A stretch of 64,000 bases of DNA from Promethearchaeota archaeon (GCA_048940045.1 JBHLOX010000001.1:33598-97597); one strand, 5' to 3'; counted from the first letter of the stretch, positions 2,916-61,746 are shown. The notes: generated from the sequence alone by a model not told the origin. Translations and numbers: made by a program.

Positions 2916-4346
2916 CTAGCCAAGCTTCTCAGAGTTAGTTTCAACGACTGCAGTGGACCATGGATATCGGTCTAAGATACGTTTCAAGAGTCGATTGACC
3001 TTGTACACTTCAGAGGTCCCAGAATAGGCTAGAAGAATGACGAGGCCACCCCTGGTGCGTTTGAACTTCTGATACATCGTTTTACTTGTGTTAATCGAGT
3101 CGCAAACAACCATCACCTCTGCTTGAGGGATGTCGAGGTCTCTCTCACCCACAGGAGACATAACGAGAACCCTTGCGTCTTCATCTTCACGGAATGCCTT
3201 GAGTACCTGGCCCTTGTCACGGGTTTCACCGGTTATTGTCAGGACTTTAAGACCCGCTTTCTCAAGGATTTCCTTGGTTTGAGCGACCATTTCAAGATAG
3301 GAAGTAAGCACCACCGTCTTCTCGTGCTTCAGTGCAATCTTCAGCACTCGAGTGACTTTGGAGGAGATTATTGGTAGAGTCTTTCTAAGATCACCCGTAT
3401 TGAAGTAGTGTTTCAGATAGTCACCATGAAACATACGTAGGAATCTCTTCGGAGGCATGGCATAGATGTATTTTCGCAACATGAGTAGTCCGGAGTATCG
3501 TCCTTTCAATTCCTCAGTAATTGGTAGTCGTTCTAACATGAGGTGAACCTTGCGTGCATCTCCATCTATGAGATGAAGGTTGTCATCCTCAGCTAGCTCG
3601 TTCATAATGTCAGTCCTGGTGTTTCTGACAAGCTCATCAATGACTTTGGAGATTGAACGTATTTTGGGATCGTAAACTGTACTTACTGTGAGTAATGTGG
3701 GCTCAATATAGTCTATCACATCAGTATCATAGAGGTCATCCATGGTGATCAGCTCAGCACCTGGGAAGAACTCCCTGAGGGTGTCGAGCTCTTTTCGAAT
3801 CTCCATTTGCTCATTGCTGAAGACTGCATGTTCATCCCGAAGGGTGCCACTCATCCCGATAAGCCATTTTCCCTCCATGTACATGAGGAGTGTTGGCCAC
3901 GGGAAGACAAGGGTCGTTCGAGTACCAGTTCGTCGAACCAAGGTATCGACTTCATTGATGAGAACTATCTCGACGGGCTCGAGCAGTGACGGGTCCTTCT
4001 TGTACATACCTGCAAGCACCTGTGGTGTTGCCACAATGACCCTTTTTTCGCGTAGTGTGTACGCACGTCTTCCAGATGGTACTCTGGAGGATAACTCCCC
4101 TAGGTCATCCTCGAGACCTCCATACTCACTCTTGAGATAGTCAACAGTCTCAGCCAGAGATGAGGAGGAGTGGACCACTATTATGACCTTAGAATTCGGG
4201 AACTTCTCCGCTACAAGTTGATGAGTAACAAATCGTTTTCCGAGACCACAGTCCAGCTCCAAGAGTAAGGGTGTGCCTTCCTTCTTTCCCACTTCCTCGA
4301 GAATGTAAGTCTGGTAACCTCTTGGAGTGTATTTGGTCTTCGACAT
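2916..4346 (-). CDS. Superfamily-2 helicase-like protein (Hef/FANCM-like layout) with atypical Walker motifs
   Basis: Motifs seen: PRGYQ near the N-terminus, CGLGKRF (Walker A-like), ATPQ, INEVD (in place of DEAH), MSGT, and C-terminal helicase lobe blocks (VLVMSPVGERDLDIP, QKFKRTRGG). Confidence 0.6.
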   Translation of the reverse strand: MSKTKYTPRGYQTYILEEVGKKEGTPLLLELDCGLGKRFVTHQLVAEKFPNSKVIIVVHSSSSLAETVDYLKSEYGGLEDDLGELSSRVPSGRRAYTLREKRVIVATPQVLAGMYKKDPSLLEPVEIVLINEVDTLVRRTGTRTTLVFPWPTLLMYMEGKWLIGMSGTLRDEHAVFSNEQMEIRKELDTLREFFPGAELITMDDLYDTDVIDYIEPTLLTVSTVYDPKIRSISKVIDELVRNTRTDIMNELAEDDNLHLIDGDARKVHLMLERLPITEELKGRYSGLLMLRKYIYAMPPKRFLRMFHGDYLKHYFNTGDLRKTLPIISSKVTRVLKIALKHEKTVVLTSYLEMVAQTKEILEKAGLKVLTITGETRDKGQVLKAFREDEDARVLVMSPVGERDLDIPQAEVMVVCDSINTSKTMYQKFKRTRGGLVILLAYSGTSEVYKVNRLLKRILDRYPWSTAVVETNSEKLG

Positions 4347-46620: not shown

Positions 46621-47620
46621 TGTGGGAAAATCAGAAACTAGAGAAACACATCGAGAGATTGACATCATAGACCTCCAGGTTGCTTTTGGTAAGTTCTATG
46701 CACTCAAGGGAGTGTCATTCTTCGCAAACAAGAGGGAGTTTCTAGGGATCATTGGAGCATCGGGAGCTGGAAAAACAACAGTACTCCGAGTTCTCACTGG
46801 GCAGATAGGTCCCACTGATGGTCAAGCCTTTGTCGGTGGGTATGATGTCACTAAGAAGTCCAAACTGATCAGTCTACTCGTTGGCTATGTTCCCCAGCTA
46901 GAACACCTGAGCCTATACTATGATTTCAACTCAATTCAAAACGCCCAGTTCTTTGGCCGCATGTTTGGTCTCAGGCCAAAAGAGATTGAGGAACGTGCGA
47001 GGAATGTCCTTACAATCCTTGGATTCGATGAAGACCTCATAACAAAGAGAGTAGACAGGCTCTCAGGCGGAGAGCGCAAGAGGGTGTCAATCTGCCTTGG
47101 GATGATCCATAATCCGCCTGTGCTCTTACTTGACGAGCCAACCACTGGTCTGGATGCACACCTCAGACATGAAACACTGAACTATCTGAAGGAGCTCAAC
47201 TACGAGCTGGGCACGACCATGGTCATCATCAGTCATGACCTAGAGATTGTTGATTACTGTACGCGAGTGTGCCTTCTGGAAGAAGGCAATGTGAGTCAGT
47301 TCGGAACTCCAGAAGAACTGATCTCGACACTCCCTGGGAGAGGAGAGAGCATCCGAGTAGCGCTCCACGCGATGACACCAGAAATCATCAGACGGGTGAA
47401 CTCACTTCCAGGAGTACAATATACTGCACAAGCTGGCAGGAAAGCAATGAAGCTGTTCATAGACAATCCAAGTGAACAAATCTTGCCAATCATCCATAAA
47501 CTCAACGAAATGAAACTACCATTTGAAGAGGTCAGTCTCGTTGAGGCAGACTTCTTTGACTACTTCCAGGTGAAACCCTGGAAGCAAATTCCTAGAGAGA
47601 TAGGAGGAACCGCAACATGA
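46613..47620 (+). CDS. ABC transporter ATP-binding protein (second NBD of the operon)
   Basis: Walker A GASGAGKTT, signature LSGGERKR and Walker B VLLLDEPTTGLD. It overlaps both neighbours (an ATGA junction at 47617-47620). Confidence 0.85.
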   Translation: MCDVGKSETRETHREIDIIDLQVAFGKFYALKGVSFFANKREFLGIIGASGAGKTTVLRVLTGQIGPTDGQAFVGGYDVTKKSKLISLLVGYVPQLEHLSLYYDFNSIQNAQFFGRMFGLRPKEIEERARNVLTILGFDEDLITKRVDRLSGGERKRVSICLGMIHNPPVLLLDEPTTGLDAHLRHETLNYLKELNYELGTTMVIISHDLEIVDYCTRVCLLEEGNVSQFGTPEELISTLPGRGESIRVALHAMTPEIIRRVNSLPGVQYTAQAGRKAMKLFIDNPSEQILPIIHKLNEMKLPFEEVSLVEADFFDYFQVKPWKQIPREIGGTAT

Positions 47621-50600
47621 AGACCTATCATGTGATCATAGCCCTACTGGTCGTCTGCGCGCTTGCAGGATTGCAGGTCCAAACGACAAACACGGGTACT
47701 CAACCCGTTGTAATCACAAGTCCTCAGGTTCAGCAAAATCCACATGCTCTCGCAGAGATCGCACCGTTCAACACGGCCATTGTGTGGTCAAACACAACGG
47801 GCAATCAGGTTGTGGACCTTGTTGTCGACAACTTCGATGCGGATGTGCGAGATGAGGTTGCTGTCATCGTTCAGAATGGTTCTTTGTTCCTGTTCGACGA
47901 CGACAGCTCACTATTGTGGAAACTGAAGCTTGGCTCGACACCACACGCACTTGCCTCTCTTGATGGCACCGCTGCTTCAGGTCAGGAGATGCTCGTTGGA
48001 ACAGACTCTGGCATTGTCGTAGTTGGAGCTGACAAGACTGTTCAGATGAACATGTCACTCCCTGAGCCAGTGTATGCTGTTGCTGGTGGTAATTTCGATG
48101 CAGATGGATTTGAAGAGGTCGTTGTGGGCTGTGACGACTTCTACGTCTATGCATTCGAGATTGACACCACTCCACTCTGGAGCTATCTCAGTAATGGTAG
48201 AGTGCGGCTGGTTGCTGGTGCGGACATCGATTCTGATGCTCGAACGGAGGTAATAGTAGCCTCTGAGGGAAGGCGGTTCACCCTCTTACAGGACACCGGT
48301 GCGGTTGTATTCGAGAAGAGTAGTGGCACAGCAATCACTGTCGTTTCTCTGGGCGATCTCACTACAGCGACAAACTTGGATGTTGTATTTGGAAACAGTA
48401 ATGGAACACTCAACATCTGGTATGATACCGGTATTCTGGCGTACAACTTGCAGGTTGGAAACCGTATCACTGCTCTCGAGGTGGGTGACCTCGTCACTGG
48501 AGGACGACACGAGCTTGCCCTCGGGACAGACAGCAATCAACTCAGGGTATACGACTCAGGTGGAACTTTCCTTTGGAACAAGACACTCACAGGGCAACCC
48601 AACAGTATATTGTTCCCCAATATCGGTGCGACTCCGAACGCCCAAGTTCTGGTGGGGATTCCCAACACCCTCAGGCTCTACAACTCTACTGGTTGGTTAG
48701 TAAGCTCGGTCAATGCTGCTGGCTTCTCCAGAGCCTTGAGCTTTGGAGACCTCGACAACTTCGGTGGTCAGGAGTATGTCTTTGGCACTAATGGAGGGCA
48801 AGTCTCCGCATACGGTCGGGACTTTGATGGTGAAGGACTAGCAGATGCGCGTGAGATCCTTATCGAGGGCACTGCTTACGATGACCCAGACAGCGATAAT
48901 GACAATTTGAATGATGCAGAAGAGGTCCTGGATTATGGGACCAACCCTCTCGCACCAGACTCGGACTTTGACAAGCTGTCTGACTTTGCAGAGGTCAGAA
49001 CATATGGCACGGACCCCAACCTAAAAGATACCGACTCTGACAAACTCACGGACTGGCAGGAGATATACCTCGGCACGGACCCGAATCAGGCAGACACTGA
49101 CTCGGACTCACTCACAGACTATGAGGAGAACAACATCACCCTCACCCTTCCCACAGACCCTGACAGCGATTCCGACGATATCAATGATGCACAGGATGAT
49201 AATGATGGGGATGGTCTCACTAACATTCAGGAGGTTCGTCTCTCCAAGACAGATCCCAACGATGTTGATACAGACGGAGATCTGACCACGGACTATTACG
49301 ATGACCAAGATGGCGACAACCTCGCCAACTGGAAGGAGATTCAAATCGGAACAGGACTTTATGACCCAGACAGTGACGATGATCTTCTCAATGATGGGTA
49401 TGAGGTGAAGACCAGCAAGACCTCCCCCTTGAACGAGGACACAGACTCAGATTCGCTCACTGACTATGAGGAAGTGATGATTGTCCATTCAGACCCGCTC
49501 AAGGCGGACGGGGACGAGGATGGGCTCAGTGACTACGATGAATATGTCGTCTATGGGACCGGGGTCTTGGACAGTGATAGTGACGATGATACATTGAAAG
49601 ATGGGGCTGAGGTCAACACCTACTTCACAGACCCCTTGAACAATGACACTGACTCTGACAATATTTCAGATGGACTAGAGGTCAACTTCTGGGGTTCAGA
49701 CCCCAATTCTGCAGACACTGACCTTGATGGTCTGAATGATTACTTGGAGTGTTATGTGTGGAACACCAATGTGACAAAAAGTGACACAGACGGAGATTCG
49801 TTGGGAGATGGGCTAGAAATTCTCACCTATGGAACAAATGCCACTCTTGTGGACACAGACTTTGACCTGATTCGAGACCCTGATGAGGTAAAGTATCTCG
49901 CCAATGGTTGGGACCCAACAAACCCCAACACCTTTGACGCTGGCACCTTAGACGGAAATTGGGACTTTGATGGAGATAGGTTAACGAACTATCAGGAAAT
50001 CTATCTGACGAGAACAAATCCAACATTATTGGATTCCGGAGGGTTGCCTCTCACTGATGACCTTGAGGACAGTGATCTTGACGGACTGAACAACTATGAT
50101 GAGTTGTATGTAACCTTCACACTTCCGAGGAATCCAGACAGCGATGAAGATATGGTCAAGGATGGAGATGAATGGAGTATTCTAGGAACTGACCCGAACG
50201 ATGAGGACACCAATGATAATGGTGTGTCAGATTATGATGAAGACTTTGATGATGATGGGCTGAGTGATGGTATTGAGCTGTATATCACTCATACCAAGCA
50301 TAACGTGACAGATAGTGATAGCGACACAATCTCAGACTATGATGACGATGAGGATGCTGATCTCCTACCAAACTGGTTCGAGGTCGAAATGACTGGTACA
50401 GATCCCTTGTATAATGATACAAACGACAACGGGACTTTCGACTGGGAGGAAGACCCCGATAACGACGAGCTCAACAATCTTGAGGAGTTTCTAAATGATT
50501 GTGACCCTCTGGCTGCAGACACTGACTTGGACCAGCTGACTGATGGAGAAGAGGTGCTCTACACCCATACAGATCCCACTGACAGCGACGATGATGACGA

Positions 50601-53600
50601 TGGAATTCTCGATGGACAGGATGACCTAGACAATGACGGTCTCACAAACCTCGAGGAACTCAGGACTTACGACACAAACGTCACCCTCTGGGACACTGAT
50701 GGAGATCGCATCCGGGATGGCCTCGAGATCGATGTGGGTCTCAATGCTACAAATCCAGACAGTGATGGCGACGGTCTATACGATGGTTGGAACGACATCA
50801 TTCCCAACGGCATCTATGAGCCTCATTTGGGAGAACGAGGCGAGGATGTCAACGCAAACGGTGTTGTTAATGTGGGAGAGACCTCACCATTCGAAGCTGA
50901 TAGTGATTTTGATGGATTGGATGACTATGAGGAGTACTCCTATGGCACATCGCCTACAAACGATGACTGTGATGATGATGGTCTATTAGATGGAGAGGAG
51001 ATAAACGACTATGGAACTAATCCTCTCAACAACGACACGGATTCTGACCTCCTGTCGGATTACATTGAGGTTGAGATTACCCTCACAGACCCGAACAACA
51101 TGTGGTACAATGGGACTCACACAGACTACATGATTGATAGTGATGGTGACATGTTGACCAATGGTGATGAGATTGACATCTATGACACCAGTCCTGGAGA
51201 CTTCGATAGCGACAATGACAACATTGGCGATGGGATGGAAGTACTCGTCTATCTCTCTGACCCAAATTCGAATGACAGTGACGGAGATGGACTCTTAGAT
51301 AACGAAGAGCTGTTCTATGGTACGGAGATCAACATACAGGACACTGATGGAGATCAGCTGGATGATTTCGTTGAAATTGAGTATCTCGGAACAAATCCAT
51401 TACTCCCATCCACATACATGAACGGTACCCTTGATGGAGACCTAGACAATGATGGGGACGGGCTCAGCAATGCAGTCGAGATCTATGGATACCACTCAAA
51501 CGCTACTGCGAAGGACAGCGATTTAGACGGTCTAGAAGACGGATTTGAGGTGTTTACGACAGGTACATCACCCACCGACATGGATAGTGACAATGACCAG
51601 CTCAGTGATTATGATGAGTACATGATATACCACACTGATCCAAGTGGCAGTGACAGTGACTCTGATGGTCTTGATGACTATACTGAGGTCTATGTTTCAC
51701 TCACCACACCAACCTCCTGGGACAGCGACGGAGATACCTTGTCTGATGGACTTGAGTGGAATGACTACGGGACAGATCCAAATTCAATAGACAGTGATAA
51801 CGACCTCCTAAATGACAATGTCGAATTGGACATTGGAACTGACCCTCTGCTTAATGACACCGACGGTGATACCCTTTCAGACTGGGAAGAGTGGATTCTC
51901 TATGATACCGACCCGACAGAAGCGGATATGGATCAAGATGGACTCAATGACGCAGAGGAGCTAGAGAACGGTACAGACTGGGAGAATTGGGATAGTGATT
52001 TCGACACCCTCAGTGATGGAGATGAAGTGAACATCTACGAAACCTCACCCATTGACGATGACACCGATTCTGACAACATCGCTGATGCAGATGAGCTGTT
52101 CAACAGCCATACCGACCCACTGCTTCTTGACACGGATGGCGATTCGATTCCTGACGACTTAGATGATCAAGATGCTGATGGCCTCACCAATCATGATGAG
52201 ATTTACCTCTATGAAACCAACTGCACAATGATTGACACAGATCTAGATTTCCTGAGTGATTATGATGAGATTTTCATCTGGGAAACATCACCCACCAAAT
52301 TTGATAGTGATGAGGACTCCCTTGGAGATTGGGACGAACTCTTCTACTGGTCAAGCGACCCCAATGATAGAGACAGTGACGGAGATGGTCTTGAAGACTC
52401 AGAGGAGGCCTTGACATTCCACACACTCCTGAATAGTACAGACTCTGACATGGACAATGTGAGTGATTATGATGAAATCAAGGTCTTTGAAACGGATCCT
52501 CTACATTGGGATACAGATTCTGATTCTATCTCAGATGGCGACGAACTGTACGTGTACAACACCTCACCCCTACGCAAAGACACTGACTCAGACAAACTTC
52601 TCGATGGACAGGAAATACATGGATTCTACATGACCTTCAACATAAGCGGTGTTGTGAGTAGTCGATGGGTCTACACGAACCCAAGAGTGGGAGACACAGA
52701 CCTCGATACACTCACTGACTTCGAAGAAGTGAACATGACTAACACTGACCCAACACTCTTCAGCACTCAAGGAACCACGATATCAGATGCAGATTGGGAT
52801 ATTGATGGAGACCTCCTGACCAATGCACAGGAGATTCGCCTCACACGAACCGACCCTCGTGACTATGATAGCGACTCAGATGGAAAATCAGATGGTGCTG
52901 ATGATGAGGACAGAGACCTCCTCACTAATTACTGGGAGTGCGTGCTGACTGAAACTGACCCGAGAGACCCGGACAGCAATGATAATGGAATCTCGGACTA
53001 CAACGATGATGAGGATGGAGACACCCTATCAAACGGAGAAGAGTGCAAGGTTTATGGAACAAACCCACTAGAACGAGACACCGATAATGACGGTCTCGAC
53101 GATAACGAGGAGATTGAGGACTGGGGGATTGATCCTCTTAACAAAGACAGTGACGGAGATGGTCTTGAAGATGGTCCAGAGGTCAACGATTGGGGGACAA
53201 TGCCTGACTCGAATGATACTGATCAAGATTGGTTGAGTGACTGGGAGGAAGTTGTCCTCACCGGCACCAGTCCAACAAACAACATGACGAATCCAGGCAC
53301 CCCTGACAGACTATGGGACAGTGATTCAGATGGTCTCTCAAACTGGGATGAGCTGAGAGTCTGGTTCACACTACCCAATGACCCAGACTATGATAACGAT
53401 GACCTCATTGATGGACTTGAGGTGACTCTGGGCACAGACATCAATGGAACAGATACTGACTCGGATTTGCTGACAGATGGAGAGGAGTATCTGCTCTATG
53501 ATACTGACCCCTTGGAGCCAGATAGCGACCTTGATGGTCTCGACGATTACGAAGAGGTAATCACGTATGAAACTGACCCGAATGAGGAGGACACCGACTC

Positions 53601-54438
53601 AGATGAGATTAGCGATTACGATGAGGTCTTTGGAGTCAATCCACTGGGAATCCCAACAGACCCGCTGGAGGATGACGGAGATTTCGACGGACTGACTGAT
53701 TACGAGGAACTCTTCATCTACGGGAGTTATCCGAACTCACAGGACAGTGACGAGGATGACCTCAGTGATTTTCTAGAGGTCACGGAGTATCTCACTGAAC
53801 CGATGAACAATGACACAGATGGAGAAGGACTCCTTGATGGTGCAGAAATAAATGTCTATGAAACAGACCCGCTGCTGGAAGACAGTGATGGCGATGGACT
53901 AGACGACTATACAGAGGTCATGGTGCTGGGCACAGACCCGAACAGCAGAGACAGCGACGGAGACGGAATCATGGATGGTCAGGACTTTCTCCCGATGATT
54001 CACTGGATATTCCCGATTGCGGGACTTCTGGTGCTGGGGTTCGTGGTCGCAGTGGGCGTGAGGCGGTTCAGAGACAGGTACATGGTGGAGGAATTCGTCA
54101 CCAAGGCAGAGCCTGCGAGCCTGGGCCTAGAACCGGGCATGGACATCGCGGTGGAGTACAAGATCCGTGGAGGGCGAGTGATATTCGGAGTGGTTGTGCG
54201 GAACGGTTCTGACAACCCAATGCAGAACGTACAGGTGATACTGGGTGTGCCAGACCTGACTGACGCAATCAAGACTGAGAATTTGGGTGCAGTGGAGCCA
54301 GACACGGTCTCAGTGGCTGAGATCGAGTTCGAGCTGCAGCCTGGCGCTGAGGGCGAGCTTGTTGGCATGGTCGAGTACGACAATGTTGAGGGTGAACACA
54401 AGGTCGTGAACCTGAAGCCGGTCAGGATTGTGGCATAG
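47617..54438 (+). CDS. Giant (2273 aa) type-I membrane protein: signal peptide, FG-GAP/VCBS beta-propeller, very long thrombospondin type-3-like Ca-binding repeat array, TM helix, cytoplasmic beta-rich tail
   Basis: The N-terminal hydrophobic leader is followed by FG-GAP-like blades (VDNFDADVRDEVAV, GNFDADGFEEVVVG, GDLDNFGGQEYVFG). Dozens of D-x-D-x-D-type repeats follow (DTDSDKLTDWQE, DTDGDSLGDGLE, DSDGDGLLDNEE and others). The TM helix IFPIAGLLVLGFVVAVGV lies at about 53998-54060, followed by RRFRDR. The tail is 125 aa (54061-54435). Confidence 0.9.
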   Translation: MKTYHVIIALLVVCALAGLQVQTTNTGTQPVVITSPQVQQNPHALAEIAPFNTAIVWSNTTGNQVVDLVVDNFDADVRDEVAVIVQNGSLFLFDDDSSLLWKLKLGSTPHALASLDGTAASGQEMLVGTDSGIVVVGADKTVQMNMSLPEPVYAVAGGNFDADGFEEVVVGCDDFYVYAFEIDTTPLWSYLSNGRVRLVAGADIDSDARTEVIVASEGRRFTLLQDTGAVVFEKSSGTAITVVSLGDLTTATNLDVVFGNSNGTLNIWYDTGILAYNLQVGNRITALEVGDLVTGGRHELALGTDSNQLRVYDSGGTFLWNKTLTGQPNSILFPNIGATPNAQVLVGIPNTLRLYNSTGWLVSSVNAAGFSRALSFGDLDNFGGQEYVFGTNGGQVSAYGRDFDGEGLADAREILIEGTAYDDPDSDNDNLNDAEEVLDYGTNPLAPDSDFDKLSDFAEVRTYGTDPNLKDTDSDKLTDWQEIYLGTDPNQADTDSDSLTDYEENNITLTLPTDPDSDSDDINDAQDDNDGDGLTNIQEVRLSKTDPNDVDTDGDLTTDYYDDQDGDNLANWKEIQIGTGLYDPDSDDDLLNDGYEVKTSKTSPLNEDTDSDSLTDYEEVMIVHSDPLKADGDEDGLSDYDEYVVYGTGVLDSDSDDDTLKDGAEVNTYFTDPLNNDTDSDNISDGLEVNFWGSDPNSADTDLDGLNDYLECYVWNTNVTKSDTDGDSLGDGLEILTYGTNATLVDTDFDLIRDPDEVKYLANGWDPTNPNTFDAGTLDGNWDFDGDRLTNYQEIYLTRTNPTLLDSGGLPLTDDLEDSDLDGLNNYDELYVTFTLPRNPDSDEDMVKDGDEWSILGTDPNDEDTNDNGVSDYDEDFDDDGLSDGIELYITHTKHNVTDSDSDTISDYDDDEDADLLPNWFEVEMTGTDPLYNDTNDNGTFDWEEDPDNDELNNLEEFLNDCDPLAADTDLDQLTDGEEVLYTHTDPTDSDDDDDGILDGQDDLDNDGLTNLEELRTYDTNVTLWDTDGDRIRDGLEIDVGLNATNPDSDGDGLYDGWNDIIPNGIYEPHLGERGEDVNANGVVNVGETSPFEADSDFDGLDDYEEYSYGTSPTNDDCDDDGLLDGEEINDYGTNPLNNDTDSDLLSDYIEVEITLTDPNNMWYNGTHTDYMIDSDGDMLTNGDEIDIYDTSPGDFDSDNDNIGDGMEVLVYLSDPNSNDSDGDGLLDNEELFYGTEINIQDTDGDQLDDFVEIEYLGTNPLLPSTYMNGTLDGDLDNDGDGLSNAVEIYGYHSNATAKDSDLDGLEDGFEVFTTGTSPTDMDSDNDQLSDYDEYMIYHTDPSGSDSDSDGLDDYTEVYVSLTTPTSWDSDGDTLSDGLEWNDYGTDPNSIDSDNDLLNDNVELDIGTDPLLNDTDGDTLSDWEEWILYDTDPTEADMDQDGLNDAEELENGTDWENWDSDFDTLSDGDEVNIYETSPIDDDTDSDNIADADELFNSHTDPLLLDTDGDSIPDDLDDQDADGLTNHDEIYLYETNCTMIDTDLDFLSDYDEIFIWETSPTKFDSDEDSLGDWDELFYWSSDPNDRDSDGDGLEDSEEALTFHTLLNSTDSDMDNVSDYDEIKVFETDPLHWDTDSDSISDGDELYVYNTSPLRKDTDSDKLLDGQEIHGFYMTFNISGVVSSRWVYTNPRVGDTDLDTLTDFEEVNMTNTDPTLFSTQGTTISDADWDIDGDLLTNAQEIRLTRTDPRDYDSDSDGKSDGADDEDRDLLTNYWECVLTETDPRDPDSNDNGISDYNDDEDGDTLSNGEECKVYGTNPLERDTDNDGLDDNEEIEDWGIDPLNKDSDGDGLEDGPEVNDWGTMPDSNDTDQDWLSDWEEVVLTGTSPTNNMTNPGTPDRLWDSDSDGLSNWDELRVWFTLPNDPDYDNDDLIDGLEVTLGTDINGTDTDSDLLTDGEEYLLYDTDPLEPDSDLDGLDDYEEVITYETDPNEEDTDSDEISDYDEVFGVNPLGIPTDPLEDDGDFDGLTDYEELFIYGSYPNSQDSDEDDLSDFLEVTEYLTEPMNNDTDGEGLLDGAEINVYETDPLLEDSDGDGLDDYTEVMVLGTDPNSRDSDGDGIMDGQDFLPMIHWIFPIAGLLVLGFVVAVGVRRFRDRYMVEEFVTKAEPASLGLEPGMDIAVEYKIRGGRVIFGVVVRNGSDNPMQNVQVILGVPDLTDAIKTENLGAVEPDTVSVAEIEFELQPGAEGELVGMVEYDNVEGEHKVVNLKPVRIVA
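48820..53990 (+). repeat. Coding array of thrombospondin type-3-like aspartate-rich calcium-binding repeats
   Basis: The period is about 11-13 residues, with a DxDxDxLxDxxE consensus repeated throughout about 5 kb of the giant CDS. Confidence 0.8.
54411..54435 (+). repeat. Copy 1 of a recurring 3'-end motif (cctgaagNNggtcaggattgtggca)
   Basis: cctgaagccggtcaggattgtggca. Here it encodes the last residues NLKPVRIVA of the giant protein. Confidence 0.9.
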
Positions 54439-54522
54439 ACAACTTGCCAAAACACACATAATCTGGAACTCACAACACCAGATTATGGAGGAAGGGTTCT
54501 GAGAGAGATTAGAAGTGCCTGT

Positions 54523-55791
54523 GTGGTCATTCTGCTATGTCTGTTGATGGTGAGTGTTCCACGAGAATCTCACTCAATTGTAACTGAAACATCGGGTACT
54601 GTAATAGCTGAGACCACACATTCACCAATCAATATCACGTCGGAGTCAGATTTCATTTCACTAGGACTTCCTGGTGATGGTTCGCCCACAGACCCCTACA
54701 TCATAGAAGATCTCTCCATCGAGTCAGTTTCAGGTGAGTCGTGCGTCAGTGTGTCAGGAGATATCTCGTCTAATTATGTGATTCGAAACTGTATCATATC
54801 TGGTACGATAATGGGAGAAGGTGATGATATAGCCGCGGCGGGAATATACCTTGGGGCTGGGCAAGGGATTATTGATGGATGTAGAATTTCAGATTGTGAA
54901 ATCGGTGTGGGAATTGAATACATAGAAGATGTAATGATTCAAAACAACATAATCGAAACAACATACAGAGGTGTCGCAATTCTCAACTCAAGCAATGTAG
55001 TGATCGAGGATTGCGAGCTTAGAGGTGGAAATGGTCTATCTTTGAGGTTAGTTAATGTATCAGATGCACTCGTCAGTAATTGCATAATTGATGCAGACTA
55101 TACAATCATCCACGGAGAACATAGAGTGGAAATAGAAAGATGTTCCGTGGCTGGATCGACCATTGCTATTGGGGCTGTTTCAGAAGCGACCATCAGACAC
55201 AACACCCTCACTCGATCAGAAATAACATTGACAGGTTCATCGGAGAACATTGATGTCTATAACAACACCCTTCTCCAATGTTATAACACAGGAATCGATG
55301 TAGGTGCTAATAACTCATTGATTTATGATAACACCATAGAGGGGTATGGTGACTTCAACTACTTTGGGTTAGTTCTGGCTGGTTACGATTGTGAAGTCTT
55401 TGGTAATGAGATCAGCAATTTCTACTATGGTGTTGTTGTTCATTCTACTGGGAATGATATTCACAACAACACAATACACGATTGTTCAGTATGTGGCGTG
55501 GTAATGGTTTCATACTCGTCAGGCAATCGGTTTTACTATAACCATGTTTACAGGAATAAGTTCAACGCGCATGATGATGGCATTAACAACATCTGGGATG
55601 ATGGAATCGACACAGGAAATAGGTGGGGCGATGCATGGTCTGCGCCTTACCAAATAAACGGAAGCGCAAATGCAGTGGACAGATATCCAATCATAATTCG
55701 GGGGTTTGACGTAGCTCTTGCAGTTATACTTACGGGTATAGTAATTGCAGTAGTTGTGATTGTCTTCGTTATCAAGAAGAAGAAAACCTGA
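54523..55791 (+). CDS. Secreted, membrane-anchored right-handed parallel beta-helix protein (NosD/PbH1-like), paralog B
   Basis: N-terminal hydrophobic leader, TDPYIIEDLSIES (compare SDPYRFENLTIAS in paralog A), repeated beta-helix rungs, GNRWGD, and a C-terminal TM helix followed by KKKK. Confidence 0.7.
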   Translation: MVILLCLLMVSVPRESHSIVTETSGTVIAETTHSPINITSESDFISLGLPGDGSPTDPYIIEDLSIESVSGESCVSVSGDISSNYVIRNCIISGTIMGEGDDIAAAGIYLGAGQGIIDGCRISDCEIGVGIEYIEDVMIQNNIIETTYRGVAILNSSNVVIEDCELRGGNGLSLRLVNVSDALVSNCIIDADYTIIHGEHRVEIERCSVAGSTIAIGAVSEATIRHNTLTRSEITLTGSSENIDVYNNTLLQCYNTGIDVGANNSLIYDNTIEGYGDFNYFGLVLAGYDCEVFGNEISNFYYGVVVHSTGNDIHNNTIHDCSVCGVVMVSYSSGNRFYYNHVYRNKFNAHDDGINNIWDDGIDTGNRWGDAWSAPYQINGSANAVDRYPIIIRGFDVALAVILTGIVIAVVVIVFVIKKKKT

Positions 55792-55811
55792 AGTTGGTCA
55801 GGATTGTGGCA
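55787..55811 (+). repeat. Copy 2 of the recurring 3'-end motif
   Basis: cctgaagttggtcaggattgtggca spans the stop codon (55789-55791) of the beta-helix gene. It matches copy 1 at 23 of 25 positions. Confidence 0.9.
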
Positions 55812-55890
55812 AAGAGTCGCTATTACGCAAGACTCAAGACTCTGACCTACCATTATAGTTGATGGAATTGGTGGAAGGCGGAATTGAAAC

Positions 55891-56169
55891 TTGAAGTCCA
55901 GCAGAACCTACCACCCTGCATATTTGTGGGGCTATTTGATGGTCTTTGCCTGTTTCGTAATCATAGCCATAGCTGCGTTGACTGACATAGTTCCCCTAAG
56001 TCTCCAACCTTCGTTTATTTTCCTGATGGTGGCCATCATGATTGCAGGAGGAATAATTGGAATGGTGGGATTCTTCAAGTCCTATGATAAGAGTGCCTAT
56101 CCAGTATTAGTAGTAGTCCTATTGATTCCACTAATATTGGTTCTAATCTATTATCTTACCAGACGATGA
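55891..56169 (+). CDS. Small hydrophobic membrane protein (about 3 TM helices)
   Basis: 92-aa ORF with a TTG start (an internal ATG is also possible). It is almost entirely hydrophobic helices. Confidence 0.45.
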   Translation: MKSSRTYHPAYLWGYLMVFACFVIIAIAALTDIVPLSLQPSFIFLMVAIMIAGGIIGMVGFFKSYDKSAYPVLVVVLLIPLILVLIYYLTRR

Positions 56170-56210
56170 GCTTTCTGAGTAGCAAAATCAGGATCAAGGA
56201 GATGATATTT

Positions 56211-56224
56211 GTCAGGATTGTGGC
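56211..56224 (+). repeat. Copy 3 of the recurring motif (14-nt core gtcaggattgtggc)
   Basis: An exact 14-mer lies 42 nt after the stop of the small membrane ORF. It sits inside a 33-codon ORF (56166-56267) whose ATG overlaps that stop (ATGA). Confidence 0.9.
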
Positions 56225-56420
56225 TCAGTGGACTTTGGCTAACTCACTCAGCATCATCTGTCCATGACCTGACCTCAGCCATAAGAATATCATAACCAGT
56301 CTTGAGGAACGCAAGCATCTCAATGATGCGTACTTCGCTTCATTGCACAAACAGTGATGCATTCAGTATAGACCCCGAAATCGCATTACTTAAGGGTCGG
56401 ATTCGCCTCCACAGCGGAGT

Positions 56421-57107
56421 ATGTTAGAGATCTACAGTGCAGTCTTCTGGGTCGTAGCAATAATCTCGGTAATACTCCAAGACAGGAAGGCTGAGTCTGG
56501 AGTGACAACGGTCGCATCTCTGACCACTGTCGTGAAGTTCCTCCCAGCTTTGATAGCAGTGGTTTTTGTCTTACTCTTTCGGTCAGTCACAATGTTCACT
56601 ATCCTGTTGGCTGCAGCACTGGTGTTTTGTGCAATAGGCGATGTAGGAATGGAGATAGACCTTGTTCCAGGGATCGGGATGTTCCTGATTGCCCAGATTC
56701 TCTACACAGCGAACTTCCTTTGGCAGTCTGTTATTATTGGGTTGACAACAATCCCTATGCTATTGGCTGCTGTGTGTATGTTTGCAGGGGGTCTGTATGT
56801 CTTTATACTCATTCGATACCTTCAGTCTTCAGGTCCTGAAATACCTCCCTTCATTCTTAGAGCAGGAACACTATACTTCATCATTATTGGAGCAACATTG
56901 AGCACTTCCTTACTACTCTGGCAAACAACAGGAGCCCTACTAGGATATCTACCAGTGATTGGAACTCTCATCTTCATAATCTCGGATTCATTCATTGGAA
57001 TCAATGAGTTCCACCATAAGATCTCACACCATGAGTTCTACAACAAGCCAACATACTATCTGGCAATCTTCCTACTGTCACTAGGCGTGTTTGTGTTCGC
57101 GTTGTAA
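56421..57107 (+). CDS. YhhN-family (lysoplasmalogenase/TMEM86-like) membrane protein
   Basis: Eight hydrophobic helices with CAIGDVGME and FIISDSFIGINEF, resembling the conserved YhhN blocks. Confidence 0.6.
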   Translation: MLEIYSAVFWVVAIISVILQDRKAESGVTTVASLTTVVKFLPALIAVVFVLLFRSVTMFTILLAAALVFCAIGDVGMEIDLVPGIGMFLIAQILYTANFLWQSVIIGLTTIPMLLAAVCMFAGGLYVFILIRYLQSSGPEIPPFILRAGTLYFIIIGATLSTSLLLWQTTGALLGYLPVIGTLIFIISDSFIGINEFHHKISHHEFYNKPTYYLAIFLLSLGVFVFAL

Positions 57108-57166
57108 GAAGATTAAGGTCCAAAGTTTGATAAGAATAGATACCCTCACTGGCTGAGGGAACACGC

Positions 57167-58423
57167 GTGAACAAAGAAGAGCTGCTGGAGGCAATCGACG
57201 CCAAACTGGATCAGCTGGATCTTCCAGAGCTGATTGAGCCAGAGAGCATCCAACCAGTAGCGATTATGACGCGTGAAAGAAGGCAGCTAGGCGAGCTCGA
57301 GAAGGAGTTGCTACAGATTCTTGAGCTTGTGAAATTGGATGAGAGACTTCCGAGTATCATTACACGACTAGCCACTGTCTATCTCAAGGAGGCCATTTTT
57401 GGTCGAGCCATTGTCCTATTCGAGTTGACATTGGGTCTTGACAGTAAGCAGGTCAATGCATGGATCAACATGGGACTGTCTTATCTTATGGTATCTAGCC
57501 CTAGGGAAGCCATCAGTTGTCTTGGTAGTGCTCTTGCAATGGACCAGAGAAACGCACTCGCATATGTATATCTGGCGATGGGACAGCTCAATTTGGGAGA
57601 ACTTGATAAGGCAAACACAAACCTTGACCGGGCAATCTTCGTCGACTCCAATATGCCTAGGGCGCTGCTCGGAAAAGGAAAGCTCTTCCGTGCGAGAGGC
57701 GAACTTGAGGTTGCAGTGTCATGGCTACGACGTGCCCTATCCATGGATTCGAACTTCTTGCCAGCACTGATGGAGCTAGGAAGTGTCTATCTTGCTCTCA
57801 AGAAGTATGAAGATGCAAGTGATGCTCTTTCCAAAGCTCTAGCAATCGATTCTGAACAGGCGTACGCACTTTCAACCATGGGAGATATTCATGCGGAGCA
57901 GGGAGAACTCGAGGCTGCCCTATACTACTATGATAAGGCTGTGAGCATCAAGTTTGACGACCCAGACTTATGGATAAAGAAGGGAGACATTCACAAATCT
58001 CTGAAATCCTACCAACAAGCATCAAACGCATATCAGAAGGCAATCAATGCCAACCCAGAACATGTAGAGGCCTGGGTCAAGAATGGTGCTGTGATGTTGC
58101 TTCTGGATGACGAGGGAACTGCACTAGAGTATCTCAATACCGCACTCGCTTTGGAACCAAAGAACGCCGATGTTTCGCATCAGAGAGGATTAATCTACTA
58201 TTCCCTAGAACGTCATCAGGAGGCGTTGGATGATTTTGATGCGGCATTCTCAGTGGACCCAGGAAATCCCATGCACCTCTATTATCGTGCACTCCTCCTG
58301 GAGATTCTAGATAGGGTTGACGAGGCGAGAAGAACCTGGCAGGTTGCCCTCAGTCTCTTCAAGGAGATAGGTGATGAGATGAAGATAGCAGAGTGCTCCG
58401 CCAGACTGAACCGGCTTGGTTAA
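57167..58423 (+). CDS. Tetratricopeptide (TPR) repeat protein
   Basis: There are about 9 consecutive 34-residue repeats with the W/A-x-x-L-G-x-x-Y...A-x-x-x-F/Y-x-x-A-L-x-x-D-P-x-N pattern. The start is GTG. Confidence 0.85.
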   Translation: MNKEELLEAIDAKLDQLDLPELIEPESIQPVAIMTRERRQLGELEKELLQILELVKLDERLPSIITRLATVYLKEAIFGRAIVLFELTLGLDSKQVNAWINMGLSYLMVSSPREAISCLGSALAMDQRNALAYVYLAMGQLNLGELDKANTNLDRAIFVDSNMPRALLGKGKLFRARGELEVAVSWLRRALSMDSNFLPALMELGSVYLALKKYEDASDALSKALAIDSEQAYALSTMGDIHAEQGELEAALYYYDKAVSIKFDDPDLWIKKGDIHKSLKSYQQASNAYQKAINANPEHVEAWVKNGAVMLLLDDEGTALEYLNTALALEPKNADVSHQRGLIYYSLERHQEALDDFDAAFSVDPGNPMHLYYRALLLEILDRVDEARRTWQVALSLFKEIGDEMKIAECSARLNRLG

Positions 58424-58440
58424 GTACCCATTAGACAACT

Positions 58441-61400
58441 CTACTCTATTACCTCAGGCAAGTCCTTCAGCTGTTCAACCGTGTCGACATCATGGGTAAT
58501 CATTATGTAGCTAGTCATACTAGTACTCTCACCAGGCTTCAGAGCACGCCTTTCACGAAGGCCGAAATGCTGAGCTTTCTCACCAAGAGTATCAAGGTAG
58601 AGGAGATTATCCCACTTGTAGGCACTTATGATACCTAGAACTGTGCCATCAGTTGCATTCTCGTAGGCACCCCATCCCTCCCTACCAGCAAATAGTTCAG
58701 ATTCTTGTGAGGTGGGTTCGTGGACAATTCGTTTGTTATCGCGGGTTGTATGGATTGTATTCAAGACTCCTCCACCAGGCGTGGGGATACCTCTGTAGCC
58801 TACAGCGGGTCTCTTCCATTGACCACTACTGTTGAGGGTAGTGAATTCAACACTCATGAGTGGAGTTCCGGGTAGAATGAGGTAACGGAAGGATACACTT
58901 ACTCCCTTCAAACCAGGACTGTGTTGTAACACAGAGGTGGTCTTGAAACCTACCCAGGGTCCAACCTTCTCATTCGAAATGGTCCAAGATTCCTGATGCA
59001 ATGCAGACTCCCAGTCCCAGACATCCATTCCAGCGATAATGGGACTAAGGCCACTGTATACCTTCTCCCACCAGATGAATGGACCAACCTTGGGGAAGGT
59101 GTCGTAGAACACACTCGGTGAGCCCTCTTTGTGGAACCTGACCAACGTGCCTGCATGCTCTGGGCATGCAGCAATTGAATACCCACCCGTACTGATGGTG
59201 TGAAGTGTTACATTCTCCTCCTTTGTCTTTGATCTATCAACTTTCAAGGCAGAATCATAGACAACAGCTGTCAATGCTGTTCTGTGGTTTCGAGTCTTGA
59301 ATTGTACCAGAATCTCCCCATTTCTTCGGAACCAAGACGAATCATCGGTTATGGTTATCTTCAAGGGGTGTGAGAAAGGCTTGTCTATATTGACCTCCGG
59401 GACCTCAATCTTCAGTTCTTTCTCGCCATTGGCGAGAAGTCCATCAGGCATTCTCAATTGAATACTAGCATCAATTGGATCTGCAAATGTAGTCCTCAAA
59501 CGTATTTCGTGATTGTTCGTCTTTGATCGATCAACGATGATAGGAGTCGACACCTTTCGGAGCTGTTTACTTGATTTGGGAGAGATTTCAACCTCGAGGT
59601 CAGACCTGATATCATATACCTCTGTGACTGGTTCGGTGATTCCGTATAGCTTTCTATACAACGATCGCACTTTCCTCCAATCACCATCACCTATGTAGAG
59701 TCGTAGAGGTGTCTTCTGGACTGACTTGCCAGGAGCCAATGTTGATAGACGGTACTCAATTCGTGGAACTTCCATTCCCCTTTTTAGTCTCACTTCCTCA
59801 ATATCTTCAGGATCCCAGATGTAACCCAGAAGGAGTTTCTCTTGATGACGATATGATGCACACCATGTTTCATGATAATCATCTGGTGATTTTGGTATCT
59901 GAGGATAGCCTGACCATTCTATGGATCCAAGATCATAGAGTTGCCCTCTCAATGGGATGATCGCATGCTCAAAGATTCCACCAAACCAGCCAGTAAGACG
60001 CAAGCCAAGGTCTTCTAAGGCTGAGTCGCCAGTATTCTCATATCTCACAATTGTATCGACTAGGTCAGTTCCGCTTTGAATACAATAGGTGACATGGTAC
60101 CTTAGGCCAGGACGTTCAAGTGAATCAGCAGTCATCTGAATCTCAGCATGATCATCTTTGGACTCAAGTAGAATTTCAGGCGTCAATCGACTCCACTCAC
60201 CTCCATCAGAAGAGAATGGATATCCCACCTCTAGACCCATCGCGTGCCGGCCATTTAAAATGCGAGATTGCGACTTGTACTCAAATCTAGTGAATCCTAG
60301 TGCTGGTTGCTGGGCCATCACTCCTCGGATGTTCTCTGTTTCTAGGATGATTCTATTGTCAAGTCCCCTGTACGCTACCGCACCTGTTACTCCAAGTACA
60401 GGAATGCTGAAGTCCTTTTGTTCAACACATGTTTGTGTCCCCTCCTCCTCCAGATAGACCTCAAGACCGATTGTGAGTAGGTGACCAACATCACTCTCAA
60501 GTGATATTGTGACAGGTTCTTCAATTACCGCTCCCTGTGAAAGATTGAATCCAATCTTTTCTGAACTGATTATGACGCCTTTTGGTGCAACCAGAACAAG
60601 CTCTCCTTTGAGATCCATTGATGTGTTGTTGAAGACGCTGATCCTAATCTGCTCAGTCCCGTTTGGTCGAAGGACAGGATGTGTTGGTCCAGAACGAACC
60701 TTGATGGGAGTTGTGGGGATGAGCCCGCTGAAGAGAGATACCTCATCAGACCCAAGTTTCAGAGCCCATTCCACTTGGGTTGGGACCTTCTCATCAGAAT
60801 TTGTTTCCCTACTAATTTCACGAACCCCGCTAGGTATCGAATAGACTCCATTGATAGAGATACTTCCATCAGCAGCCACTGAACCAGATGTGTCATCTTG
60901 GAGTCTGGCTGAGATGTTCTCCGATGGCTCAATATTCACTAAGAATGGCAGTTCGTCTTTTGTCCCATTCTCAATGACCAATTCTACAGGATACTCTCTG
61001 AAGCCGATATAGCCAATATGGGTCTTGGGTTGGACACTAGCGGAGAGTGACTCACCTTCAAGCACAAGCCGAAAGGCGCAGATTCCCTTCGCTTCTCTGT
61101 CTACGGTGACATCAAGTGATTCGCCATTCTCGCCTTCAAAATGGTATTTGAAGACTCCAATACCATCCTCTTTGATGTCGTCAGTTTCCTGTCGAATCTC
61201 GCGTTTGAAGGAGTCATACCAATGATACTTCTCGAAGAATGGTTGAAACAGCTTGTTACCAAGGATTCCAGGGATGTGCGACTCCATTAGAACTCTGGTC
61301 GCAGGCACCCAGTTGTATCCAGTTCTCTTGTAGAGCGGAAGAGCTTTCAGATTCCCTGCCCAAGTGTGAAGATCAATACGTCGCTTTCCAGCCTTAGCAG

Positions 61401-61746
61401 CAGTTTCTGCAGCCTCTATGAGGAGAGCCTTTCCAAATCCTTGTCCTTGAAAGTGTGGATTTACACCTAATAGACCAACATATGCTGCTTCGTTATCACG
61501 GTCAGAATTACACACATTGCAGAAACCCACGACCTTGTCATCTTTGTATGCAACAATCACACGGATGTCCTTGTTTTTCTTCTGAGCATCAAATACTCGC
61601 TCCGCTGTGATGACTGACCCCTCAGTAAAGCCACCAGGCCAACTGTCTGAGTCGTTGAAGGAGTTGAAACACTCAGCCACGCGAGCAGAGTCTTCCATAG
61701 TCAGCTGATAGTCACGAACCTTACCTTGTGTATGTTTGTTAGTCAA
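58441..61746 (-). CDS. Large (1101 aa) protein: N-terminal GNAT acetyltransferase domain plus ~900 aa of unknown beta-rich sequence
   Basis: GNAT block VVGFCNVCNSD...YVGLLGVNPHFQGQGFGKALLIEAAETAAKAGKRRIDLHTWAGNLKALPLYKRTGY. The remainder has no recognisable motif. Confidence 0.75.
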   Translation of the reverse strand: MTNKHTQGKVRDYQLTMEDSARVAECFNSFNDSDSWPGGFTEGSVITAERVFDAQKKNKDIRVIVAYKDDKVVGFCNVCNSDRDNEAAYVGLLGVNPHFQGQGFGKALLIEAAETAAKAGKRRIDLHTWAGNLKALPLYKRTGYNWVPATRVLMESHIPGILGNKLFQPFFEKYHWYDSFKREIRQETDDIKEDGIGVFKYHFEGENGESLDVTVDREAKGICAFRLVLEGESLSASVQPKTHIGYIGFREYPVELVIENGTKDELPFLVNIEPSENISARLQDDTSGSVAADGSISINGVYSIPSGVREISRETNSDEKVPTQVEWALKLGSDEVSLFSGLIPTTPIKVRSGPTHPVLRPNGTEQIRISVFNNTSMDLKGELVLVAPKGVIISSEKIGFNLSQGAVIEEPVTISLESDVGHLLTIGLEVYLEEEGTQTCVEQKDFSIPVLGVTGAVAYRGLDNRIILETENIRGVMAQQPALGFTRFEYKSQSRILNGRHAMGLEVGYPFSSDGGEWSRLTPEILLESKDDHAEIQMTADSLERPGLRYHVTYCIQSGTDLVDTIVRYENTGDSALEDLGLRLTGWFGGIFEHAIIPLRGQLYDLGSIEWSGYPQIPKSPDDYHETWCASYRHQEKLLLGYIWDPEDIEEVRLKRGMEVPRIEYRLSTLAPGKSVQKTPLRLYIGDGDWRKVRSLYRKLYGITEPVTEVYDIRSDLEVEISPKSSKQLRKVSTPIIVDRSKTNNHEIRLRTTFADPIDASIQLRMPDGLLANGEKELKIEVPEVNIDKPFSHPLKITITDDSSWFRRNGEILVQFKTRNHRTALTAVVYDSALKVDRSKTKEENVTLHTISTGGYSIAACPEHAGTLVRFHKEGSPSVFYDTFPKVGPFIWWEKVYSGLSPIIAGMDVWDWESALHQESWTISNEKVGPWVGFKTTSVLQHSPGLKGVSVSFRYLILPGTPLMSVEFTTLNSSGQWKRPAVGYRGIPTPGGGVLNTIHTTRDNKRIVHEPTSQESELFAGREGWGAYENATDGTVLGIISAYKWDNLLYLDTLGEKAQHFGLRERRALKPGESTSMTSYIMITHDVDTVEQLKDLPEVIE

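Follow-up and report, generated by a model that had tools for sequence, protein, structure and literature searches.

Why does a 14-nt motif, GTCAGGATTGTGGC, recur exactly three times in close succession in archaeal DNA? The question is raised by a stretch of 64,000 nt from a Promethearchaeota archaeon (GCA_048940045.1, JBHLOX010000001.1:33598-97597), referred to in the following as the window, which corresponds to G000:C125:33598-97597 of the genome assembly that we call G000 (3,154,026 bases in 273 contigs, 90% complete). An initial annotation, made from the sequence of the window alone, had placed the motif at the 3' ends of three consecutive genes and offered three explanations: att-like repeats left by insertion of single-gene cassettes into the 3' end of a giant gene, a shared RNA processing or termination site, or a short peptide module accessed by frameshifting. 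After comparing the locus with its relatives, we consider it probable that the first of these is right and that the three copies are att-like (attachment site-like) recombination-junction repeats, belonging to an integron-like array of cassettes that is anchored on the 3' ends of genes, because empty sites exist in relatives, cassette order is permuted, homology breaks at the repeats and the repeats have a single orientation.

All three exact copies are found on the forward strand, at positions 54421, 55797 and 56211. As the initial annotation had stated, there is no further copy in the window; none appears if up to two mismatches are allowed, and in the whole 3.15-Mb G000 assembly the exact motif occurs three times, each time at this locus. 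Three copies with one mismatch are present elsewhere in G000 (contigs C139, C145 and C224; 0 for the reversed control), which is about chance level, our own estimate being roughly one. The 14-mer forms the core of a longer direct repeat of 31 nt, whose three copies are spaced 1376 and 414 nt apart. We use the term stub for each such copy of the end of the giant gene (or, as described further below, of nrdD). Stub 1 (54409..54439, forward strand) is the giant gene's own end and reads AAC CTG AAG CCG GTC AGG ATT GTG GCA TAG A, with the core at 54421-54434 and a score of 55 bits in a position-specific scoring matrix (PSSM); from our analysis, it may play an attL/attI-like role. Stub 2 (55785..55815, forward strand; core 55797-55810; 38 bits) is identical to stub 1 in 28/31 nt (90%). 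Stub 3 (56199..56229, forward strand; 11 bits) is decayed and 65% identical to the reference; it has lost its left half and its stop codon, and the 14-nt core (56211-56224) is the only intact part. The reading frames assigned in the initial annotation are correct: copy 1 encodes the last nine codons (NLKPVRIVA) plus the stop of the giant gene, copy 2 is in the -1 frame relative to the open reading frame (ORF) of a beta-helix protein and copy 3 is placed 42 nt after a 92-residue ORF. Stub 2 holds the TGA stop of the beta-helix gene (55789-55791), its own stop being mutated to AAG. The supposed link to the ends of three consecutive genes, however, is incidental, as the repeat follows genes on either strand in relatives.

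The giant gene (47617..54438, forward strand) codes for a 2273-residue secreted or surface protein with Pfam beta-propeller and TSP3 matches. Stubs 1 and 2 enclose cassette A (54440..55784, forward strand), which consists of a leader and a beta-helix/NosD-like gene identified with Pfam (54523-55791). Between stubs 2 and 3 lies cassette B, or sm92 (55816..56198, forward strand), with the gene for a 92-residue membrane protein (55891-56169) and a conserved upstream block, caagactcaagactc. Stub 3 is followed by a remnant of cassette C (56230..56372, reverse strand), which was recognised by its blastn match to G005, G012 and G019 and by alignment; the cassette codes for a membrane protein of about 130 residues in relatives, and in G000 a 45-residue ORF (56225-56362) is left, with no stub after it. 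The conserved right flank (56373..58423, forward strand) then begins with the upstream block of YhhN, cgaaatcgcattacttaagg, and contains YhhN (56421-57107) and a TPR gene (57167-58423).

Judged by its orthologues, copy 1 is the part of the giant gene that codes for its conserved C-terminus, because the variants within the genus are synonymous or conservative in the V-R-I-V-A frame (GTG/GTA/GTT/GTC, AGG/AGA/AAG, ATT/ATC). The last approximately 30 residues of the protein are kept in orthologues as ...AEGELVGMVEYDxVEGEHxxVNLKPV[R/K]IVA and stop. The initial annotation had rightly read copy 1 as the end of the giant gene; it missed the conservation across orthologues, the arrays throughout the genus and the second anchor gene. 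A shared C-terminal sorting signal was also considered and rejected, since a search of the G000 ORFs found no other one that ends with this motif.

Our comparison set comprises 25 loci of the same genus and 13 non-redundant Thorarchaeota-like metagenome loci. The latter come from a metagenome scan with 68 stretches, 21 of them scoring ≥30 bits, from which we left out five duplicates of one contig family and three chance matches (L102, L140 and L143, high-GC bacteria with KPVRIVA inside ordinary proteins). With a 23-mer pattern (≤3 mismatches) we obtained matches in 25 of the 28 genus genomes, compared to 0 for the reversed control; in nine genomes two to three copies are located on a single contig and strand. 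When both strands of G000 (6.3 Mb) are scanned with the 34-nt PSSM, 23 matches reach ≥6 bits; in 51.8 kb of variable regions, its matches fall exclusively on the forward strand.

The order of giant gene, YhhN and TPR gene is constant across the genus and metagenome loci, and the gap between giant gene and YhhN varies from about 50 nt to 3.9 kb, with zero to three further stubs inside. Among the 25 genus loci, 12 have downstream stubs, and so do 7 of the 13 from metagenomes (19/38), the maximum being four stubs in total (L128, L139). Their orientation is uniform across arrays, whatever strand the neighbouring gene uses; in fact, 13 stubs directly follow genes on the opposite (minus) strand. Empty sites, where the right flank comes straight after the stop codon of the giant gene, are present in G014, G024, G011b, L126 and L136. 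More distant Thorarchaeota loci are likewise empty in three of four cases (L153, L160, L168), and together these sites suggest that the empty state may be ancestral. In eight of the nine arrays that reach YhhN, the last stub begins 79-118 nt ahead of this gene (313 nt in L128); in empty sites, the giant gene's own end begins 86-101 nt ahead of it. This agreement between last-stub and empty-site spacing is the pattern of an attL/attR pair. A separate observation concerns the metagenome-assembled genome (MAG) G011 (9% contamination), in which one contig carries an empty site (giant gene followed by YhhN) and another carries two stubs around cassette C (contigs C194, C225); this may be a case of two strains binned together, i.e. 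strain-level variation.

Each stub-bounded unit contains one or two genes, and several units recur in different surroundings. The beta-helix cassette is shared by G000 and L101, with a minus-strand relative in L128. The 92-residue gene is found between stubs in G000, G010, G004, L119 and L139, and homologues of it lie straight after the giant gene in G010, G016, G019, G004, G013, G009 and L119, and after cassette C in L085 and L139. Cassette C, on the minus strand, is present in G020, G005, G012, G010, G011a, L085 and L139, besides the truncated form in G000. The remaining cassettes carry VapB-Fic (G015, L114), a PIN protein (G008), DUF998 (G007, G017), a PKD protein (G042), a ferredoxin-domain protein (L119) or a putative nucleotidyltransferase (L105). 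Such cargo (VapB-Fic, PIN, DUF998, PKD, LRR and beta-helix proteins) is typical accessory material. The order of the units is permuted, e.g. sm92 precedes cassette C in G000 and G010, and follows it in L085 and L139. Synteny in relatives, the comparison named in the initial annotation, thus bears out its cassette proposal with empty sites and with stub-bounded cassettes in different orders. Homology, moreover, changes at the stubs: G000 55785-56195 matches the giant gene end plus sm92 of G016, starting 12 nt left of the core, and G000 56210-56327 matches the giant gene end plus cassette C of G005. The position of stub 3, at the joint of sm92 and cassette C, corresponds to that of stub 2 in G010. 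In L101 the beta-helix cassette follows the giant gene as well (63% amino acid identity to G000); the identity between both loci is 55-95% over the stretch that runs from the giant gene to the end of stub 2, and beyond it they are unrelated (6/40 and 12-19/40 identity).

The phenomenon is not confined to one gene. Within G000 we found 13 gene ends that are repeated downstream (≥14 nt), compared to 2 in the reversed control. Assembler repeats of 77 nt account for two of these 13, and clear cases are provided by the giant gene and nrdD (anaerobic ribonucleotide reductase). The end of nrdD (G000:C261, locus L172) forms an exact 45-nt repeat at 2707-2751 and 3575-3619, 868 nt apart, with a 155-residue ORF in between. 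Three nrdD-end stubs are present in G001, three in G020 and four in G002 (loci L173, L174 and L175), all in a single orientation within their array and reading ...FNPAKKQEFLDRHRYxL and stop, or a decayed form of it. Their cargo consists mostly of unknown proteins, plus a luciferase-like enzyme, and beta-helix genes are located just beyond the last nrdD stub in G001 and G014. From these sequences, nrdD is a second anchor gene with the same kind of array in four genomes.

We propose that the giant gene provides, in its last approximately 30 nt, an attachment site in the chromosome, where units of one or two genes would enter by a crossover inside the gene end sequence. The giant gene would retain an intact end, and a second copy would remain at the far side of the insert. 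Repeated insertions would build up an array (in the window giant gene, beta-helix gene, 92-residue gene, cassette C remnant and YhhN), and recombination between stubs could delete or reorder units. Movement would proceed via excised circles that bear one stub. The point of exchange would be near ...GGATT/GTN..., at the right end of the 14-mer, judging from a small number of closely related stubs: when these are paired, the sequence as far as ...GGATT tracks the upstream unit, and GTN-GCN-stop with its flank tracks the downstream unit. These pairs are G005 stub 2 and G010 stub 3; G020 stub 1 with G011a stub 1 and L085 stub 1; G000 stub 2 and L101 stub 2; and G007 stub 2 and G017 stub 2.

Several observations weigh against an array of recombination junctions and need to be set beside the evidence above. 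One concerns the enzyme. The tyrosine recombinase family PF00589 has no match in the 90% complete G000 assembly; within the genus it is present in 8 of 28 genomes, in each case on contigs other than the array contigs examined. It shows no association with stubs (4/12 stub-bearing genomes and 4/16 others). As far as the sequences go, no conserved Xer-type gene is apparent in the genus, which would be unusual for archaea if the MAGs are representative. Neither resolvase (PF00239) nor Cas1 (PF01867) was found in G000, and 92 ORFs from array regions, searched against Pfam, include no recombinase, integrase or transposase; in the window, the recombinase scan covered the ORFs in 39366-61746. Excised or empty-site junctions were not seen in four runs, which were searched as assembled contigs, where rare variants are dropped. 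The repeat is not constant in length but ranges between 14 nt and at least 57 nt (L114 stub 2), which fits a single fixed att core less well and is unlike the fixed duplication length of a transposon. The inferred exchange point depends on about six close pairs, and comparing all stub pairs at the level of families did not narrow it down, as the cassette families are too diverged. Furthermore, large variable regions with several genes but without stubs exist in G022, G002, G013, G016 and G041, and homologues of sm92 (G012, G017) and of the PKD protein (G007) lie between YhhN and the TPR gene without stubs. Some shuffling therefore bypasses the stubs, and the space between YhhN and the TPR gene forms another variable spot, with an insertion route of a different kind. 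Finally, downstream stubs often retain the stop codon and synonymous-looking changes. This coding look could reflect selection on the reading frame rather than inheritance from real gene ends; it may also result from right parts that were repeatedly inherited from real gene ends via crossovers.

Two candidates that came up in the searches for excised and viral forms were rejected. A contig of X3 that runs from stub 1 into G004-type cassette sequence represents a co-occurring relative, not an excision product, and two viral-contig matches considered as viral attP were both due to chance, one in a high-GC response-regulator gene (on the contig of L140) and the other inside an opposite-strand ORF of 752 residues.

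As to how units are exchanged, the variable repeat length and the decay from the left favour crossovers over short homology, and the tight core with an apparently common exchange point favours a site-specific enzyme. On balance, a site-specific recombinase, acting in trans or belonging to an unrecognised family, would be our first guess at somewhat below even chances, recombination over short homology would come next, and the rest goes to other routes. More speculatively, and with rather less confidence than we place in the array itself, Thorarchaeota might possess a cassette-capture system of their own, which would use the last 30-50 nt of certain core genes (giant gene, nrdD) as attachment sites. 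Cassettes bearing such gene ends would then circulate among species and be inserted, excised and reordered by an unrecognised recombinase or by short homology, i.e. like an integron without IntI or attC. We regard this wider picture as possible rather than probable.

What else could produce such a pattern? The repeat might mainly be a cis-acting signal, either a protein-binding site upstream of the downstream promoters or an RNA element, the cassette borders being secondary. Stubs do lie 65-95 nt ahead of the next same-strand start codon in several arrays, stub 3 of G000 keeps the exact 14-mer between two decayed flanks, and AGG is retained in the stubs of G020, G004, G017, G042 and G005 despite a changed resident gene end. 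Also, an 11-nt core, GTCAGGATTGT, is best conserved in those stubs that are not gene ends (pairwise 0.7-1.0, compared to 0.33-0.70 for the left part); however, this is partly circular, as detection with the PSSM favours conserved cores. Among gene ends, 9 of 24 have the exact 11-mer, and among downstream stubs 8 of 16 do, so that there is no difference. We consider a cis signal unlikely in view of the homology breakpoints at stubs, their one orientation relative to the giant gene whatever the neighbour's strand, the many multi-gene variable regions that have no stub, the absence of other exact motif copies in the genome and the unrelated nrdD end that behaves alike. Moreover, DNA folds of the three copies are no better than those of shuffled sequences on either strand (z -0.5 to +1.0), and Rfam gives no match at E up to 1 in 53800-56800. 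In addition, thirteen stubs come after genes on the opposite strand and therefore a shared mRNA 3' signal, and equally a frameshift peptide, is excluded as a general explanation; with this, the RNA processing or termination site and the VRIVA peptide of the initial annotation both fall. Concerted evolution of the stubs with the resident gene end is not supported either: in five arrays the stub has kept AGG against AAG, ATG or CGG in the gene, or ATT against ATC. Somewhat more doubtful still than a cis signal is that the stubs are relics of local 3'-end duplication (by slippage, unequal crossing-over or decayed tandem paralogues), the intervening genes having arrived by unrelated events. Some stubs indeed reach further into the gene end, as in L114 stub 2 (DSVESEHRIVNLKPVRIVA, then stop) and L128 stub 4 (EHRIVNLKPVRIVA, then stop), and scores often drop with distance (55/38/11 bits in G000, 48/36/26 in G010 and 44/26/22/19 in L139). 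However, the extension in L114 stub 2 encodes EHRIV where the resident gene has EHKVV, and hence is not a local copy; sm92, cassette C, VapB-Fic, DUF998 and the beta-helix gene recur stub-bounded in varied orders and with varied neighbours; the last stub recreates the empty-site junction with YhhN; and no remains of the body of the giant gene were detected between stubs with its last 199 residues as query.

The peptide module proposed in the initial annotation, LKPVRIVA added to cassette proteins by -1 frameshifting or coupling, is very improbable beyond the strand argument just given. It could draw on the beta-helix ORF, which stops inside the stub in both G000 and L101 with the -1 frame open upstream after an A-rich run (...NLKLVRIVA... 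in G000; ...DLKPVRIVA and stop in L101), and on the stop codon kept straight after VRIVA in many stubs. But G000 and L101 share the whole cassette by descent and so count as one case, neither AAGAAGAAGAAAACC (G000) nor AGGAAAAGAAAGACC (L101) contains an X XXY YYZ heptamer, G000 stub 2 has lost its own stop and stub 3 lacks NLKP. Elsewhere, G015 stub 2 and G020 stub 2 have 7-9 open codons upstream and no start, and no other protein of the genome ends with the motif. Least of all do we believe in a segment duplicated by assembly error, which the initial annotation had named as a possible refutation. In a second sample (X2), each copy is spanned by a contig of its own (53000-55410, 55382-55895 and 56033-56702), and therefore the copies are not an assembly duplication; a single contig covering 53000-57429 comes from X1, possibly the source sample. 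The three copies also differ in their flanks (100/90/65% alike), and the same architecture is found in 19 independent loci. What gives the idea any weight is that the assembly does contain exact 77-nt direct repeats at exactly 177-nt spacing, on at least 10 contigs of G000 (C38, C87, C88, C123, C126, C206, C234, C238, C249 and C252). These are probably an artefact of the assembler (k=77), and they could create false short duplications elsewhere in the MAG. Taken together, we find att-like junctions of a gene-end-anchored cassette array to be the explanation that best accounts for the three copies.

Upstream of the array, the ORFs and their Pfam matches give the order ABC-2 permease and ATPases, a 1462-residue subtilase and the giant gene, to be followed by beta-helix gene, 92-residue gene, YhhN and TPR gene. 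The beta-helix protein has 422 residues, carries a membrane anchor at its C-terminus and terminates with KKKKT and stop. The leader between the stop of the giant gene and the start of the beta-helix gene contains a perfect 10-bp inverted repeat (54457-54466 and 54478-54487; CATAATCTGG...CCAGATTATG), which may form a regulatory hairpin. About 50 nt of this leader are near-identical in L101, though the beta-helix proteins share only 63% identity. Upstream of the 92-residue gene, a tandem block, caagaYtcaagactc, is located at 55830-55845. It is conserved at the same place in G010 and G019, i.e. in three species, and might serve this cassette as a promoter or operator. Beyond the right flank, on the reverse strand (58441-61746), a protein of 1101 residues has a GNAT acetyltransferase domain at its N-terminus as the only recognised domain, with about 950 residues beyond it.

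The locus is one instance of a genus-wide, integron-like array on conserved gene ends. The assembly of Asgard gene content is a subject of study, yet little is known about gene uptake, and the arrays offer a concrete, repeatable route, by which genes for toxin-antitoxin pairs and for surface and small membrane proteins would be slotted in behind a conserved cell-surface operon and nrdD and exchanged between species. If this works without a dedicated integrase, it would be a simple way to integron-like plasticity; if a dedicated enzyme is involved, there would be a recombinase, as yet unrecognised, still to be discovered. The case also warns annotators that short out-of-frame echoes of a C-terminal coding sequence behind genes can be recombination scars and not recoding signals.

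In the limited collection of literature that we searched, we found no description of gene-end-anchored arrays in Thorarchaeota, but several known systems resemble them in part. A transposon with target-site duplication is not among these, as there is no transposase, no fixed repeat length and, among the 25 of 36 inverted pairs listed, no terminal inverted repeat at cassette ends. In the dif modules of Acinetobacter plasmids, sites of about 28 bp bound much-shuffled modules with toxin-antitoxin cargo, the host recombinase being encoded outside the module, according to the parts of the reports considered here (PMC6449649, PMC13141974). Small accessory modules, toxin-antitoxin pairs included, between short recombination sites are thus common to both. 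However, the sites there bind XerC/XerD, and here no tyrosine recombinase was found in G000 and, instead of 11-bp arms, the only inverted pair in the stub is one of 5 bp, CCTGA/TCAGG, which is absent in G007's own gene end and lost in the K-variants. The dif sites flanking a module alternate in orientation, whereas the stubs at giant-gene arrays all point one way.

Closer in phylogeny are small integrated elements of Atabeyarchaeia (Asgard), which are described as excising and circularising, start at 1.3 kb and have a short bounding repeat that is present twice when integrated (Valentin-Alvarado et al. 2024, Genome Res, PMC11529989, here in excerpt). The genes given for a mini-element of 2.6 kb are ParG, a hypothetical protein and RuvB, and no integrase is among these. 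Small integrated Asgard units bounded by a short repeat are therefore seen in both cases; in contrast to the arrays, the excerpt describes an 11-bp AT-rich att that is not a gene end, single inserts, and tyrosine integrases in the larger elements.

There are integrative elements that insert at the 3' end of a tRNA or protein gene and bring along a copy that replaces this end, which gives rise to attL/attR direct repeats; they also occur in tandem accretions, some of them without an integrase (cis-mobilisable elements). The arrays share with them the intact target, the partial 3' copy at the far end, three or more direct repeats after successive inserts and the empty sites. They differ in that units are 0.4-1.9 kb in size, hold one or two genes, and permute like cassettes, and in that no integrase is present at any of the array loci examined (19 at the giant gene, 4 at nrdD).

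A further comparison is that with integrons, or with a cluster of attC sites lacking integron-integrases (CALIN). Archaeal integrons are reported to be enriched in Asgard archaea and mostly without a nearby integrase (Ghaly et al. 2022, Sci Adv, PMC9668308), and the portion of that work available to us gives as their features mostly single-gene cassettes, a repeat in one orientation after each, a fixed insertion point and toxin-antitoxin cargo, in all of which the arrays are alike. An array of short cassettes with sites in the same orientation, and with content and order that differ between genomes, is also what we find here (19/38 loci). Unlike an integron, the locus lacks IntI (PF00589 being absent in G000) and any attC hairpin or R''(RYYYAAC)...R'(GTTRRRY) pair on either strand of 54301-56500, where a single GTTRRRY occurs, inside the beta-helix gene. 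Likewise, its site is the coding 3' end of a core gene and not an attI beside intI, and cassette genes lie on either strand. By the features that define the class, IntI and attC, the array falls outside it, but in function it is integron/CALIN-like.

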